Positions 4,904 to 42,793 of a stretch of DNA of 64,000 nucleotides are shown in pieces (the first letter of the stretch is position 1; every line of letters starts with the position of its first letter). This DNA is from an uncultured Prevotellaceae bacterium. Its GTDB lineage: Bacteria; Bacteroidota; Bacteroidia; Bacteroidales; Bacteroidaceae. The position numbers and the translations under genes were made by a program. Location: contig CADAOD010000021.1 of assembly GCA_902789415.1 (NCBI GenBank), positions 5,030 to 69,029 on the forward strand. The letters run 5' to 3'. The notes beneath the pieces were generated by a model. It was not told the DNA's origin. It saw only the letters and a list, made by a program, of their open reading frames with translations, and searched no databases.

Positions 4904-5180
4904 AGACTTTATCACAGAATTGGCACAACGCATGGGTTATTCGGCCGATGAAACCCAGCAGTTTGTGAATTGCGTAGTTGATGCCATGGGCGACCATTTC
5001 CAGGACGACGACTCGGTGCTGATACCTACCTTCGGTACATTCGAGGTTAAAAAGAAGATGGAGCGCATCATGGTTAACCCTTCTACAGGACAGCGTATGC
5101 TGGTACCCCCAAAATTGGTGCTTACATTTAAGCCAAATGTAAGTTGGAAAGAACGTGTAAAGAATGGAGGAGCTGAGTGA
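4893..5180 (+). CDS. HU-family DNA-binding protein (start moved to ATG 4893)
   Basis: [38 protein letters not shown]. Confidence 0.9.
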
Positions 5181-7333
5181 TGGGAAAGATTTCGATACAA
5201 GAATTAGCTAATGTGCTGGTTGAGCGCAGAAGAATGAACAAACGCGATGCAAGTTTGTTTGTAAGTGCTATGTTCGATATCGTACAGCAGCGACTTGAAA
5301 CCGATAAGTTGGTTAAAGTCAAAGGTCTGGGTACGTTCAAGATTATTGATGTTGAAGATCGCGAAAGCGTAAACGTAAATACCGGCGAGCGTGTGCTTAT
5401 CGAGGGTCACGGAAAAATTACTTTTGTGCCCGATGCTCTGATGAAGGAGTTGGTAAACAAGCCATTTGCCCAGTTCGAGACGGTGGTGCTGAACGATGGT
5501 GTGGATTTCGACGATGTTACAACCACATCTACAGATGAGCCCGAGCCCGAAGTGGATACAGAGCCTATCGTAGAACCCGATCCCGAACCAATTGTTGAGC
5601 CAGAACCAGAGCCTATCGTGGAGCCAGAACCAGAGCCCATCGCTGAGCCTGAACCCGAACCTGTTGTAGCGCCTGAGCCTGCTCCTGTGGTGGAGCCTGA
5701 ACCTCAAGTGAACATCGACGACAATCATGAGGCAATGCCATTGGTTGACTTTGGTGACAACGAGGAACCAGAGCCCATTGTAGCTCCTGAGCCTGTGGCT
5801 GTTCCCGAGCCTGTAGTTGAGCCCGAGCCCGTTGTTGAACCAGAGCCGGAACCTGTGGTAGAACCTGTAGCCGAGCCAGAGGATAACCCCGAGGCCGAAG
5901 CTAATGAGGTTGCGGATTTGGACGATGAGTTCGACGACGATATAGACGATGAACTTGAGGAGGAACTTAAGTTAGGTATGACTATTCGTCCTGAGACAAC
6001 AGTTCGCCCAAAGGAAGAACCAAAAGTTCTGGAAGATATCGCCGATGAAGATATTCCTGAATGGGTTATCGAGCCTTATGTTGCTTCGCCTGCCGAAGCA
6101 CCGGCAGAGCCAGCACCAGTCGTGGAGCCGGAGCCAATTGTAGCTCCAGAGCCCGAGCCTGTTGTAGAACCCGAACCAATTGTCACTCCTGAGCCCGAGC
6201 CAGTAGTAGAGCCAGAGCCAATTGTAGCTCCAGAGCCTGAGCCAATTGTCGCTCCTGAGCCTGTGGTTGAAACTCCAAAGCCTGCAATGAATTCTAATCT
6301 GCAATCGATTTTGAGTTCGTTCCAGACTATCAAGAAACCTGCTCCAGCTCCTGAACCCGAGCCTGCTCCAGAGCCAATCGTTGCTCCTGAGCCCGAGCCA
6401 ATCGTTGCTCCCGAGCCTGAGCCAGTTTATACTCCTGAGCCAGAGCCCGTTAGCCCTGTTGTAACCCAGCTCTCTGACGAGACCAAAATTACCGAGGAGT
6501 CGCTCCTTGATATGCCTGAGGATGAGCCCGAGCCAGTAGTGTTCCACGAGCCCGAGCCTGTGGTAGCTCCAGAACCAACTCCAGTAGTCGAGGAGCATAA
6601 GCTTACAGCTGATGAGGAGCTTGAGGCTGTTATTCCTGAAGAGCCCGAGAACGAGGAGCCTGAATACGAGTTTGAGTCAGCCCGTCCACGCAAGTCGGCC
6701 GGAAAATGGCTGTTGGCCTTGCTGGCATGTATCATTGGCTTAGGTTGTGGCTATCTGTTGGGTAATCATTATCCATATGCTAACTTCCTGCCTGATGAGA
6801 GCAGCGAGACCGTGATCCACGTTCAGAAGGAAGCCGCTCCTGAGGCACAGGCCGCTCCTGAGGTTGAAGCTGTAGTAGAGGAGACGCCTGCCGAAGTTGA
6901 GCAGCCAGCTGCCGAGTCTGATACCAAAGCTGCTGAAGCAAAGGCTGCCGAAGAGGCTAAGGCTGCAGAGGCTAAAGCCAAAGCAGATGCCGAAGCAAAG
7001 GCAAAAGCCGAGGCTGCTGCCAAGGCAAAGGCCGAAGCCGAAGCTAAGGCTAAGAAGGAGGCAGAGGCCAAAGCCAAAGCAGATAAGTACGATGCGATGG
7101 ACGCCAGAGTACGTCTTGGTGCCTACCGTATAGTTGGTACCGACCGCACAGTAAAGGTTAAGGAAGGCGAGAATCTTGTAAAGATTTCACGTCGTGTTTT
7201 TGGCCCCGATATGGAGTGCTATCTTGAGGTATATAATAACATCAAAGCCTCTACACCACTCAAGGTTGGTCAGGAAATCAAGATTCCAAAACTGGAGCTG
7301 AAGAAGAAAAAGAAGGCCACAACAGCCAACTAA
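5177..7333 (+). CDS. HU-domain protein with a long Pro/Glu-rich linker, one TM helix, an Ala/Lys/Glu-rich helix and a C-terminal LysM-like domain
   Basis: N-terminal [30 protein letters not shown]; (V/I)xxPEPEP repeats; [19 protein letters not shown]; [26 protein letters not shown]. Confidence 0.8.
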
Positions 7334-20610: not shown

Positions 20611-20700
20611 GGAAGGATGGGTGAGTGGCTGAAACCAGCAGTTTGCTAAACTGCCGTACGGGTTCCCGTACCGGGGGTTCGAATCCCCCTCCTTCCGCCA
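20611..20700 (+). tRNA. tRNA-Ser(GCT)
   Basis: Cloverleaf with long variable arm, anticodon loop TT-GCT-AA, GTTCGAATC T-arm, encoded CCA. Confidence 0.95.
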
Positions 20701-20736
20701 AAGGAGATCTCCGAGATTTGTCTTTGACATGCTGTT

Positions 20737-20808
20737 GGTCGATTCATCTAATGGTTAGGATACAAGATTCTCAATCTTGGCATAGGGGTTCGATTCCCCT
20801 ATCGACTA
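20737..20808 (+). tRNA. tRNA-Glu(CTC), copy 1
   Basis: Anticodon stem-loop CAAGA-TT-CTC-AA-TCTTG, GTTCGATTC T-arm. Confidence 0.93.
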
Positions 20809-20899
20809 CAACATCTTTTACATTTTGGTCGATTGAGTTTTCAACTCTATCTCCCTCGCGACTCGGCAATTCAAGTAAACTTGATTGCGCTCGCTGCTC

Positions 20900-20971
20900 G
20901 GTCGATTCATCTAATGGTTAGGATACAAGATTCTCAATCTTGGCATAGGGGTTCGATTCCCCTATCGACTA
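20900..20971 (+). tRNA. tRNA-Glu(CTC), copy 2; integration target
   Basis: Identical to copy 1 over 72 nt; 3' end duplicated at 54504-54518. Confidence 0.93.
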
Positions 20972-20972
20972 C
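20958..20972 (+). repeat. attL core
   Basis: TCCCCTATCGACTAC, same as 54504-54518. Confidence 0.9.
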
Positions 20973-39920: not shown

Positions 39921-40118
39921 ATGGATGCCAACTACTATAGCAGCTATCTGAAGGTATATCTTACCGATGCCGGTGATGCCCGAAAGGATGATGAAGACTT
40001 CATCAGTTCCAGGGCCGATGCAGCATCAGAAGAGTATGAGGTGCAGCGCCGTGCCGGTGCTCCACCCCCATGTGCCCAGGAAATGGCAATGTCAGTCCTG
40101 ATGGTAGGGTTAGAATAG
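39921..40118 (+). CDS. DUF1896-like small protein
   Basis: YYSSYLKVYL..FISSRADAASEEYE....G.....AQEMAMSVLMVGL pattern of Bacteroidota conjugative elements. Confidence 0.7.
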   Translation: MDANYYSSYLKVYLTDAGDARKDDEDFISSRADAASEEYEVQRRAGAPPPCAQEMAMSVLMVGLE

Positions 40119-40127
40119 CGATCTTTG

Positions 40128-41297
40128 AAACACTGAGATATAGCCTGGCATGCGGCACTTGAGCGATGGGGTTACGCTATTAAGTTAAGTGTTCTGTGAT
40201 TCCATGAGCGTAGCGGTGCCAGGCCCTTATATCGCCGAAGGACTGGATAACGGTTACTGCACCTATTTCTTCTGGAGCATGACTCCGTTTGTGATGGATG
40301 CAGGTTAAGACGTCGAGCTTAGGGGGCGTTCATACGAACGAGCATCTATGACCAGTGAAGGCGATTACTACTGGAGGTTATGCTGTCATTGTCATTATAG
40401 GATTGAATTGCATTAGCAAGGTCTCTCCGCGACGCAGCATATACCTCCATTTTGGGACTTGCGGAGGGGTTCGTCAACAACTGCCCCTGTATGACCATCC
40501 CATGAGCGAGCGGTGCCAGGTTCCTATGGGGAATGTCGGCACTTGAGCCTCCTTTTTGGTGAGCGTTGCGATTCCCCGTCATGGGAAAAGCGGGTGAGAG
40601 TCCCGCACAAGGGGAATGGCAGTTGCTTTGAAAGGTGATCCCACACCCGGTACGACGATTCCCCGTTCTTCTTGGAGGGTTGCGCCAGAGCGTCAAGGGC
40701 GTAAGGAGTGGGGCAAGTACATCACTCGCTGAGAGGCCCCTCCATCTACTGGAGAGTGCAGTATAGGTATTCACAGGTGCTACGGCACGTCTGCGAGGGT
40801 CTGAGGCAAACGCCGATAACGACTGGAAAAACGGCTCTCCATTCTTCTGGGAGTCATTGCCATTATAGGATAGAATTGCATCCGCAAGGTCTTTCCGCGG
40901 CGCTCCCATCTTCTCAGGACGGATGTAATAGTCCTGAAGCTGCACACTGCCGGGTGGAGTAGTTCCCTGCATCCGGGTTCTTCCACTGAAGACAAGCCAG
41001 ACAGGAGTGCAGCATTTTTGGAAACGCCATGTACGCCTCGGCGGAATCGGACTGCCGTCGATCTTGGGTTTCCATCGGGAGGATATTCACGGGAACTGTG
41101 TCCGTGCAGAAGTGCCTCCCGACCTATTGGAGAGTGCGGATATAGGCGAATCCGGGTGCTTCAATGGCACGTCTGGGTGTCCCTGAGATAGCATCAATAA
41201 TGGGTGGAAAAACGGCTCTCCAATCTACTGAGCTGCTGCCGTTGGCTACGCGATTAGGTTCGTGTTCTGTAGTTCGACGGTGGCAGTGTTTTTTTTG
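40128..41297 (+). ncRNA. Candidate large modular structured RNA (or RNA-motif array)
   Basis: No credible ORF; duplicated motifs with compensatory changes; G-U pairs favour the + strand; ends in a hairpin plus T8 at 41235-41296. Confidence 0.6.
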
Positions 41298-41455
41298 ACT
41301 CTGTGCTTTTTGGACAGGACGTCGGCGAATCTGCAAGGGGTGCTGCTCGATGGGAGGAACCCTTTCCAATTCTTTCCAATTCTTGCAAAATTGGAAAGAA
41401 TTATATATATTGGGCGCAGTCCGCTATTACCGATTCCAGAGAGAATAAAGACTTG

Positions 41456-41546
41456 TTAACAATTATCAGCCGCTGGCTGGGAATTATAAAAATATGTAAA
41501 AGAACTGTTGAAAAGTTGTTTTACATTAACTTTTTCGTAACTTTGC
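41456..41546 (+). promoter_or_regulatory. 91-bp promoter cassette, copy 1
   Basis: 85/91 identical to 42681-42771; ends in a TAnnTTTG box. Confidence 0.8.
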
Positions 41547-41604
41547 ACTCAAAGAACGTGGACTTGATGCTCCACAACCATTGTATATTCAAATATTTGA
41601 TAAA

Positions 41605-42285
41605 ATGAAACATGTACTTTTATTATTAGTGTTTTTTGCCATTCCTGCTATCAGTATTGCCCAGGGAGCAGATGATTTCTTCACCAGTCCTGAATTTAAG
41701 GCAGACATTCAAGAGTACAACAAGACAACGAAAGGCAGTAACAAGAAGCGTTGCCAGATGTTGATGAAGTTAGAAAATCATATGAACGATGAAGGTGAAA
41801 TCCAATATCAGTACGTGTTTCATGCCAAGGACACCCTGAATAGAGCACAGCTCATGGAGATTGTCAAGCGATGGGCCAAGACGAATTATAAGAATCTTGA
41901 GAAATCGACTATCAGCGAGACGGACAGTACCGCTGAATATACAGGCTATTTTATGAATGTCGGTCAGGTTATGGGTGCTTTTAAGGCCGTCATCATCAAT
42001 GCAATTTCGTATGTCCTCATCGAAGCCAAGGCCGACAGGATTAGAGTGACGGCTACCGTCAGACACTACTCCCTGGCACAGGGAAGTGTTTCCGGTGCCA
42101 AGACTGCCCTAACCTTACCAAAAGATGTTTATCCATATGCTGATTCATCTAATCAAAGTACCTATGCTCAGGCATATATTAACTGTCACTATAATCTTAT
42201 AACAACAGTTGCCGGTATTCTGATGTATCTTAACAAGAATTACCCTTCTTTCCCTGCTAAGGAAAAGAAGAATGATGATTGGTGA
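41605..42285 (+). CDS. Secreted DUF4468-like protein (start moved to ATG 41605)
   Basis: Signal peptide; YQYVF..LNRAQLMEIVKRWA..IEAKADRIRVT. Confidence 0.6.
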   Translation: MKHVLLLLVFFAIPAISIAQGADDFFTSPEFKADIQEYNKTTKGSNKKRCQMLMKLENHMNDEGEIQYQYVFHAKDTLNRAQLMEIVKRWAKTNYKNLEKSTISETDSTAEYTGYFMNVGQVMGAFKAVIINAISYVLIEAKADRIRVTATVRHYSLAQGSVSGAKTALTLPKDVYPYADSSNQSTYAQAYINCHYNLITTVAGILMYLNKNYPSFPAKEKKNDDW

Positions 42286-42360: not shown

Positions 42361-42680
42361 CTTTGAAATATAACAGGTTATCTTGCCTATTTGGGTAAGA
42401 TTATCTTACCCATGTACCCTGTATCAGATCAGCCTACTAAAATATAAGGTGCTCCTTGTATTTTACATCAATTTTGATGTATTTGAAGGTGTAAAGATAT
42501 TTTATTTCGCCCGATTTTAGGGGGATATAACTACCTCACCTGCAGTCTGTTTCGCGTTCTACGGGCTTTATATGAGGTCATTTTCTCCGTCGACATCGGT
42601 AAAATGCCCGTTTCGGCAAAATACTTGACAATATTCAGTTGGCGTATCTTTTACCGATGCAGGAAAGGAATTTGTACCTA

Positions 42681-42771
42681 TTAACAGTTATCAGCCACTG
42701 GCTGGGAATTATAAAAATATGTAAAAGAACTGTTGAAAAGATGTTTTGCATTATCTTTTTCGTACCTTTGC
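42681..42771 (+). promoter_or_regulatory. 91-bp promoter cassette, copy 2
   Basis: Direct repeat of 41456-41546; ends in TACCTTTG. Confidence 0.8.
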
Positions 42772-42793
42772 TGTCAGATAATAACTCTCAGCA

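Follow-up and report, generated by a model that had tools for sequence, protein, structure and literature searches.

Does a short sequence that occurs twice within one non-coding region of a bacterial mobile element owe its conservation to the structure of an RNA, and if so, what could such an RNA do? The question is raised by a 64,000-nt stretch of DNA from an uncultured Prevotellaceae bacterium (positions 5,030–69,029 of contig CADAOD010000021.1, assembly GCA_902789415.1; hereafter the window), in which two copies of a sequence here termed motif A lie within an array of hairpin domains on an element resembling a plasmid or an integrative and conjugative element (ICE). From folding and from comparison with ~40 related loci (L numbers), which were collected from contigs encoding the same MmeI and DUF1896-like proteins, from pattern scans of GTDB genomes and from a scan of Joint Genome Institute (JGI) metagenomes, motif A is modelled as an independently folding, unbranched RNA hairpin domain of ~55 nt, with four short helices between invariant internal loops. 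The best explanation, to which we assign a probability of roughly 60%, is that it is a re-used hairpin cassette of a mobile-element RNA repertoire, serving as a trans-acting recognition or decoy module.

A sequence-only reading of the window had proposed a duplicated, structured motif at 40372–40449 and 40848–40908, and both direct reading and a repeat finder, which returned a 51-nt direct repeat (40385–40435 and 40853–40903, 88% identity, 468 nt apart), bear out the shared sequence. A 32-nt pattern across the shared part matched exactly twice in the window, with 0.00 matches expected from 100 shuffles. Also upheld were the proposed change of GTC/GAC into GCC/GGC at identical spacing (40392 T>C with 40432 A>G), the fixed TTGC/GCAA stem around a loop that changes from ATTA to ATCC and, according to minimum free energy (MFE) folds, closing stems that differ in sequence and both pair. 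Among the six core differences (40392 T>C, 40404 T>A, 40414 T>C, 40415 A>C, 40425 C>T and 40432 A>G), 40392/40432 is a U-A to C-G swap, and the remainder, counted as five, leave every pair intact. When six random substitutions were placed in the 51-nt core in 200,000 trials, the probability of keeping all 14 pairs with at least one compensatory pair was 0.007; the compensatory change is therefore more than expected by chance, yet is based on one double change for one chosen structure.

Both copies, and the copy in L070, folded by MFE and centroid alike into a single irregular hairpin which runs, from the outside in, through P1, a 4-nt bulge (CAUU), P2 (GUC/GAC), a 6 × 2 internal loop (AUUAUA/GC), P3 (GGA/UCC), small loops (UU/UC and A/GG), a 2-bp step (GA/UC), P4 (UUGC/GCAA) and a tetraloop. 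The multi-stem junction that had been proposed did not hold up, as all three folds are unbranched and the covariance model of the motif has 0 branch points. Copy 1 folds with an MFE of −31 kcal/mol (z = −4.9) and copy 2 with −23.3 kcal/mol (z = −2.9), and the minus strand of the motif folds less stably than the plus strand. Two pairs exist on the plus strand only and would be A·C mismatches on the other: the invariant U·G that closes P1 at its base, and the wobble of the UUGU/GCAA variant in L070. With DNA folding parameters the inner helices are unstable. Because the G·U pairs fit only the plus strand and DNA parameters leave the inner helices unstable, motif A is taken to be a plus-strand RNA hairpin.

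These folds bear on an alternative to which we give very little credence, namely that the hairpins act as single-stranded DNA, either as priming or promoter structures in conjugation (of the sso, ssi or Frpo kind, a role once considered for the STAXI motif) or as recombination sites for cassette exchange. Such a role would suit a locus near relaxase and SSB genes on mobilizable elements, its mosaic, cassette-like arrangement and the folding of the plus strand of copy 1 as DNA (z = −4.1), but the DNA centroid retains only P1 and P4, the folding strand has a Bacteroidetes promoter before the module and a U-tract terminator after it, and the module is present in many RNA libraries. Nor is the orientation to the relaxase gene fixed, as a structure of the transferred strand would require: the window and L001 have the two on opposite strands, L184–188 on the same strand, with the origin of transfer itself unmapped.

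Selection for structure, as the sequence-only reading had suggested, gains support from the wider set of copies. In 7 distinct variants, 100% of the 119 cells of the 17 pairs are standard, while slid controls pair in only 33–55%, and the closing helix is swapped while the core is nearly invariant. Three pairs changed on both sides (two in P1 and one in P2), and P4 shows one G·U wobble, in L070; its loop varies (AUUA, AUCC, AUAA, AUCU) with the stem kept. Homologues that break these pairs uncompensated would have spoken against the structure, and no variant found does so. Two more variants (RNA run X26, DNA run X10) share the copy-2 frame and carry U-A in P2, with differences confined to loop positions, and because of this the C-G pair of P2 is read as a single derived event. 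A covariance model (R1), the check that had been called for, scored true copies at 84–89 bits (copy 1, 89.2; copy 2, 84.5) and everything else at ≤13 bits. Its search of ~250 kb of related loci returned no diverged relatives, and the family appears to be narrow on present sequences; more diverged copies do occur in DNA runs X10 and X13 (5 differences in 53 nt).

The nearly invariant core is enclosed by at least six different closing helices, all of them paired. The helix of window copy 1 (UGGAGG-U-UAUGCUG / CAGCAUA-UA-CCUCCA) recurs in L002, L136 and L142–151, and that of copy 2 (UGGGAG / CUCCCA) in L138; the others are GAAGG-... with the same 3′ strand as copy 1 (stand-alone genes and L139), CUUCU-UA-GUUG / CAAC-AGGAG (L137), UGGUUG / CAACCA (L140) and GGAUGGUUG / CAACCAUC (DNA run X10). 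This diversity is hard to reconcile with a recent neutral duplication in which chance or gene conversion produced the U-A to C-G change and structural selection played no part. We consider that account very unlikely: the unrelated helices around the core all pair, none of 8 variants breaks a pair, the stand-alone gene retains its promoter and terminator in several backbones, and flanking modules in the same loci have diverged down to 72–85% identity with the core at 88–100%. In its favour are the single compensatory event, with a P value that concerns one chosen structure, and a core that is nearly identical everywhere, which fits a recent origin. When the same loci are compared, the core has 4 variants (88–100% identity) and modules B, E and I have 5–18 variants (72–99% identity, with minima of 72–76%), so that the near-invariance of the core reflects either a recent spread or a strong constraint that extends to paired and unpaired positions.

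On the minus strand, an ORF (open reading frame) of 208 aa spans both copies of motif A, which could thus be read as a protein repeat (...RRDLANAIQSYNDNDS... and ...RKDLADAILSYNGNDS...). The ORF is long, and gene callers report a 219-aa gene in its place in ten related contigs (L142–L151). However, it has no Pfam family, its composition is of low complexity and rich in R, P and S, and at least 4 of the 6 nucleotide differences between the copies alter the amino acid in this frame. It is intact in near-identical copies only, with stops and reordering or inversion of segments in the diverged relatives L063, L137, L138 and L141. We judge the ORF spurious and the chance of a protein repeat negligible. 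Many short 'proteins' in a public protein collection (P0121–P0134) are motif A translated together with its promoter, and these entries are database pollution by structured RNA.

Motif A is embedded in a non-coding array that contains no credible or conserved ORF and in which each segment folds alone into a closed domain. Many domains are closed by UGGAG.../...CUCCA helices and linked by (A/U)UCU(U/A)C, and the elements CCAUGAGCG...GGUGCCAGG and CGGCACUUGAGC occur twice each. Independent evidence for a structured plus-strand RNA at this locus comes from module B, which covaries clearly on sequence comparison: among its 28 variants, both partners have changed in 6 of the 10 predicted pairs, and many positions switch between G·U and G-C or A-U, fitting the plus strand. 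More generally, pairs are kept through compensatory or wobble changes, as in structured non-coding RNAs (ncRNAs), thinly so within the motif A core. The start of the array is kept at 90–94% in L157 and L172, and the same type of terminator closes the arrays of L001, L063, L070 and L186. Coordinates are collected in Table 1.

Table 1 Features of the array region in the window and of associated sites in related loci (window positions unless a locus is named).
Feature	Position	Strand	Description
65-aa DUF1896-like ORF	39921–40118	+	Directly upstream of array
Whole non-coding array	40119–41296	+	~1.18 kb, ~13 hairpin domains; directly after stop codon of 65-aa ORF
First domain	40144–40222	+	CCUGGCA...UGCCAGG frame around hairpin related to the terminator's inner one
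208-aa ORF	40346–40972	−	Spans both motif A copies; judged spurious
Motif A copy 1	40372–40449	+	P1 TGGAGG-T-TATGCTG / CAGCATA-TA-CCTCCA around 51-nt core 40385–40435
Motif A copy 2	40848–40908	+	P1 TGGGAG / CTCCCA around core 40853–40903
P2 compensatory pair	40391–40393 / 40431–40433; 40859–40861 / 40899–40901	+	GUC/GAC in copy 1; GCC/GGC in copy 2
P4 hairpin	40408–40419; 40876–40887	+	UUGC-AUUA-GCAA in copy 1; UUGC-AUCC-GCAA in copy 2
Module B copy 1	40750–40845	+	Three-way-junction domain, immediately before motif A copy 2; repeat families D2–D4
Module E	40912–41014	+	After motif A copy 2; 11 variants; after motif A also in L139 and L138
Module B copy 2	41128–41222	+	Repeat of module B copy 1
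Intrinsic terminator	41233–41296	+	10-bp stem CUGCUGCCGU / ACGGUGGCAG (41233–41242 / 41277–41286), conserved inner hairpin, U8 (41289–41296)
Operator-like sites	L186 ~7130–7290; L070 ~5730–5800; L001 6480–6560	reverse in L186	Palindromic, ACTTGAC-N6–8-ATCAAGT
82-aa protein	L001 6232–6480; L177 4748–4996; L186 7208–7456; L157	− in L186	Absent from window

Several smaller observations concern the make-up of the array. An element formed of CGGCACUUGAGC and CCAUGAGCG(U)AGCGGUGCCAGG occurs twice (40153–40222 and 40499–40548) with its halves in reversed order, as if one two-strand internal-loop motif had been circularly permuted, and CCUGGCA and GGCAC compete for one GGUGCCAGG partner. The inner hairpin of the terminator (41244–41275, GGCUACGCGAUUAGGUUCGUGUUCUGUAGUUC) is related to the hairpin of the first domain at 40171–40202, and the terminators of related small-RNA genes hold a similar insert containing GCGAUUAG. 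ARAGORN found no tRNA in the array, and ideas of tRNA-like, CRISPR-repeat-like and rRNA- or signal recognition particle-mimicking elements, which had come from short resemblances seen by eye, were dropped for want of support.

Homologous, differently ordered arrays were found in L001, L002, L038, L063, L070, L121, L157 and L172, and the hosts named for five of them (L038, L063, L070, L121 and L157) are exclusively Prevotella, Prevotellaceae or Bacteroidales metagenome-assembled genomes. The arrays are mosaic, with blocks of the window array standing in other orders elsewhere and spanning up to 1.9 kb in L063; in L001, a variant of module B takes the place of motif A between flanks that match exactly the left side of motif A copy 1 and the right side of copy 2. 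Related arrays are always on mobile elements (plasmid- or ICE-like, of a Rep3-DnaB-ParA-YAcAr-relaxase type, from rumen Prevotellaceae). The 65-aa ORF and at least two RNA arrays also stand on the IMG/VR contig L172 (UViG 3300010998_000682), which is classed as viral; either the system extends to phages or the contig is a misclassified plasmid or ICE.

Motif A itself is more restricted. Among 185,579 GTDB species genomes it was found only in L070, using a permissive pattern for its 5′ half (other matches were at chance level), and a 27-mer of it had no match in GTDB genomes; a pattern scan of IMG/VR gave chance matches only, and BLAST against phage and plasmid collections returned nothing. The JGI metagenome scan yielded six contigs with motif A, of the same core types, and a protein database searched with translated motif variants returned the same three core types again.

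In L070, L141 and L184–188, and likewise in a DNA contig of run X4, motif A occurs as a stand-alone small-RNA gene of ~90 nt. This gene consists of a −7 box TACCTTTGCA (TAnnTTTG type), N5 and GAAATGAAGG...CCTCCATTTTTTT, ending in T7–8; ~5 nt after the −7 box comes GAAAUGAAGG..., followed by the hairpin and then 7–8 U. The stand-alone copies thus have the promoter and intrinsic terminator of Bacteroidetes small-RNA genes, whereas those of the window are embedded in the array instead. On Rep3-DnaB-ParA elements the stand-alone copies have a DUF5045 gene on one side and the relaxase region on the other. An intermediate form is seen in L139, where the 5′ leader of the stand-alone gene is kept and the 3′ side is fused to the usual linker and module E, which suggests that arrays were built from stand-alone genes, or the reverse. 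Upstream of the stand-alone promoter are at least three palindromic, operator-like sites, whose sequence suggests that a dimeric DNA-binding regulator may control the small RNA. A protein of 82 aa (MMNLKIGDIVKAK...) is conserved in several small-RNA islands; it has a basic tail at its C terminus, matches no Pfam family and is a possible RNA-binding partner.

Such a stand-alone architecture is typical of trans-acting small RNAs, and motif A could accordingly be a base-pairing regulator. Its invariant unpaired stretches (UCAUUGUCAUUAUAGG), which include two CAU anti-start-codon triplets, would pair where translation of a host or element mRNA starts, in an A/U-rich region, and the hairpin and U-tract would serve just for stability and termination. 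We regard this as possible but improbable. The conservation of loops while helices vary is in keeping with it, and there is a precedent in RteR of CTnDOT, a small RNA of a Bacteroides conjugative transposon encoded in a region of excision and DUF1896-type genes. Stand-alone motif A resembles RteR as a small-RNA gene on a Bacteroidota conjugative element; unlike RteR, which is a single small RNA, it is also an array module, and the comparison is by description and not by sequence. Antisense matches in the 64-kb window were at chance level (best 11–13 nt at E ~1–14; host genomes were not searched), and the complement of the loop region matched once with 3 mismatches, as it did in 16 of 100 shuffles. 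The conserved stretch also lies partly within P2 and P3, and base-pairing leaves unexplained why a dozen different modules stand in a string.

The motif A hairpin was present in 18 RNA-seq runs from 11 rumen or sheep-gut studies. The window itself stems from a rumen organism, and the DNA runs that contain the array region are bovine gut metagenomes. Contigs from rumen metatranscriptomes cover 40200–41150 at a word depth of 14–34, with several flanking bins empty; other RNA contigs carry motif A within other arrays. The RNA contigs run uninterrupted through the motif and its junctions. We infer transcription of the plus strand from the G·U pairs, the promoter and the terminator.

The continuity of these contigs counts against the idea that motif A is a new self-cleaving ribozyme, whose cleavage would cut the array into unit-length RNAs, or an aptamer. 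Invariant internal-loop nucleotides between replaceable helices are indeed what small ribozymes and aptamers show, different structured RNAs cluster on mobile elements as known ribozymes do, and the conserved linkers between modules could be processing sites. Against this, no similarity to any ribozyme or riboswitch family appeared even at E<10, leaving the suggested self-cleavage without support; the module precedes no regulated gene; with its loops of 2–6 nt, an unbranched hairpin is small for a catalytic pocket; and a dozen new ribozyme classes at one locus would be implausible. We therefore think a ribozyme or aptamer unlikely. The position of a riboswitch or cis-acting leader was not found either, as the array copies are internal and the stand-alone ones are self-terminated, with no downstream ORF on their strand.

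The window, 12 related loci and the array sequences were compared with the 4227 models of Rfam 15, which include riboswitches, ribozymes, STAXI, GOLLD, ROOL, OLE and Bacteroides and Bacteroidales motifs, at the gathering threshold and then at E<10. At the gathering threshold only three tRNAs were detected in the window, and only tRNAs in the 12 related loci. At E<10 with the laxest filters, the array, the L063 and L070 arrays and the isolated 91-nt motif gave only noise (≤21 bits). GOLLD and ROOL reside on prophages or mobile DNA, and ROOL came to light in rumen metagenomes (PMC12286853). Like the large 'ornate' orphan RNAs GOLLD, ROOL, OLE and raiA, the array is a long (at least 0.6–1 kb), multi-domain and highly expressed ncRNA. 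Unlike them it matches no Rfam model and has a host among the Prevotellaceae rather than the Bacillota, and where their architecture is fixed, its domains are reordered, swapped, duplicated and also found singly. STAXI is one small pseudoknot, repeated, whereas the array has a dozen different modules, its motif A is unbranched, and no match to the Rfam STAXI model was found at E<10. The STAXI motif (RF01728) is found in Bacteroidetes, often in tandem, beside SSB, topoisomerase, antirestriction and integrase genes of conjugative elements (Weinberg et al. 2010, PMC2864571). The array shares that kind of neighbourhood. Searches of the literature on STAXI, DUF1896, large ncRNAs with Prevotella, and conjugative ncRNAs of Bacteroidota found no description of the array RNA, which is apparently undescribed: an orphan structured ncRNA of mobile elements, unusual in being a mosaic of interchangeable domains.

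Together with the ornate RNAs and STAXI, clusters of small ribozymes on mobile DNA are the nearest known counterparts, and the array belongs to none of the three. Hammerhead, twister, pistol and hatchet ribozymes cluster on phage and mobile DNA and have conserved cores within variable closing stems; the array similarly places unrelated structured RNAs side by side on mobile DNA and a core in changing closing stems, but it matches none of these families and its RNA contigs are continuous across modules. Flavivirus 3′ untranslated regions duplicate structured modules (xrRNA1/2, DB1/2) that function in exonuclease resistance. The likeness, by analogy only, lies in a domain duplicated within one transcript with compensatory differences and different flanks, the sequences and organisms being unrelated. 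In ToxI arrays, tandem structured units on mobile DNA are near-identical repeats of 34–36 nt that are processed singly and followed by a toxin gene; the present array also consists of tandem structured units on mobile DNA, but these are heterogeneous, 50–150 nt long and without a following endoribonuclease gene, and a type III toxin–antitoxin arrangement was thus not recognised.

The neighbouring genes describe the element. Those of the window encode DnaB, a YAcAr (SLOG) protein, an HNH nuclease and the 65-aa DUF1896-like ORF, as expected of a mobilizable, plasmid- or ICE-like element, which further carries an MmeI-type restriction-modification enzyme, a relaxase and MobC, with SSB farther along; 3′ of the array comes a 234-aa protein of unknown function, followed by the MmeI-type enzyme. 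The 65-aa ORF matches Pfam PF08989 (E = 2e-12) over profile positions 6–68 of 142 only and looks truncated, yet because its relatives form 166 protein clusters (90% identity) that are all 65 or ~91 aa long, it is a conserved short protein and not a broken gene. A DUF1896 gene split by an intron or insertion was ruled out, the 65-aa form being conserved as such with no C-terminal half downstream. The ORF precedes arrays or small-RNA genes in the window, L001, L002, L137, L157, L172 and L178, and does not in L173. Tracing its divergent homologues led to extra small-RNA islands, in which no new motif A was found. In Bacteroidetes, DUF1896 genes adjoin AcrIIA9 and ArdA homologues (PMC6739104), and the neighbourhood is one in which conjugative elements of Bacteroidetes place their anti-defence genes; by association only, it hints at functions in host conflict.

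Three further features of the element lie outside the array. A 106-nt direct repeat (41451–41556 and 42676–42781, 89% identical) flanks the 234-aa ORF (41581–42285) on both sides, its second copy just upstream of the MmeI gene; relatives of the L001 type, which lack the 234-aa gene, have a single copy, and the repeat looks like a duplicated promoter or leader remaining after insertion of a gene cassette. A perfect 14-nt inverted repeat (AATTCTTTCCAATT / AATTGGAAAGAATT, 41368–41402) follows a short tandem CTTTCCAATT repeat ~70 nt past the array terminator. At 20611–20972, where G+C content drops from ~50% to ~40%, three tRNA genes (tRNA-Ser(GCU) and two tRNA-Glu(CUC)) may mark an integration site or the left border of the mobile element.

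Folding and comparison thus show a modular hairpin domain whose pairs fit the plus strand; it turns up in RNA libraries, is confined to mobile elements and matches nothing in Rfam. The favoured explanation of motif A as a trans-acting recognition or decoy cassette can be spelled out as follows. Motif A is one cassette among at least 12 structured RNA modules on plasmid- or ICE-like elements of rumen Prevotellaceae, which would be expressed in two forms: as single small-RNA genes (TAnnTTTG promoter, module, U-tract) or as concatenated, terminator-ended transcripts of kilobase size, in which the modules are joined by short pyrimidine-rich linkers as in 40119–41296. The two window copies stem from one cassette re-used in two different closing helices. 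Its internal loops may be read by a protein or another macromolecule, making it a trans-acting recognition site, a reading suggested by helices that can be exchanged, a terminal loop that varies freely and internal-loop nucleotides that do not vary, and by a module that occurs both alone and embedded. Since motif A is found alone and in arrays and not before genes, it probably acts in trans. On this view the arrays could work as multivalent scaffolds or decoys, to the benefit of the element's maintenance, its transfer or its conflict with the host.

Several points weigh against this explanation. Covariation within the core is thin, with a single compensatory event and a single wobble; P3 and the greater part of P4 show no variation and are hence uninformative either way, and the near-invariance of the core could partly reflect the recent spread of one cassette. 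Folding of the whole array is not significant (z = −1.4 on the plus strand and −2.3 on the minus strand), and the window array has just an imperfect promoter box (GATCTTTG, ~40121–40128); it may be co-transcribed with the 65-aa ORF. The RNA evidence consists of unstranded assembled contigs with no 5′ or 3′ ends or processing sites mapped, and DNA carry-over is possible. No partner protein was identified and no gene strictly co-occurs with motif A; the 82-aa protein recurs in only some islands.

Beyond this, the arrays might represent a shuffled 'cassette library' of at least 12 autonomous RNA domains, which Prevotellaceae plasmids and ICEs would recombine via standardised closing helices and linkers into single-module genes or kilobase arrays, each domain binding or mimicking a different host factor. 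We hold this extension to be doubtful; if true, it would be a new kind of RNA system, with domains, motif A among them, that could be, for example, decoys against host defence or RNA-targeting systems.

One compensatory pair is small evidence alone, and its worth lies in giving entry to the array. Among the bacterial genera of the rumen Prevotella dominates, and the array RNAs are plentiful enough for contigs of them to be recovered from many metatranscriptomes of the rumen and sheep gut. They nevertheless lack annotation, and gene-calling software reports 'hypothetical proteins' of 200–340 aa in their place; for annotation, the locus flags a class of false ORFs. For RNA structural biology, it supplies a dozen compact natural domains with clear boundaries. 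It is unusual for bacteria to re-use heterogeneous, highly conserved RNA domains in varied helices and orders and to express them singly as well, and this pattern points to undescribed RNA-level functions of mobile elements in maintenance, transfer or host conflict.

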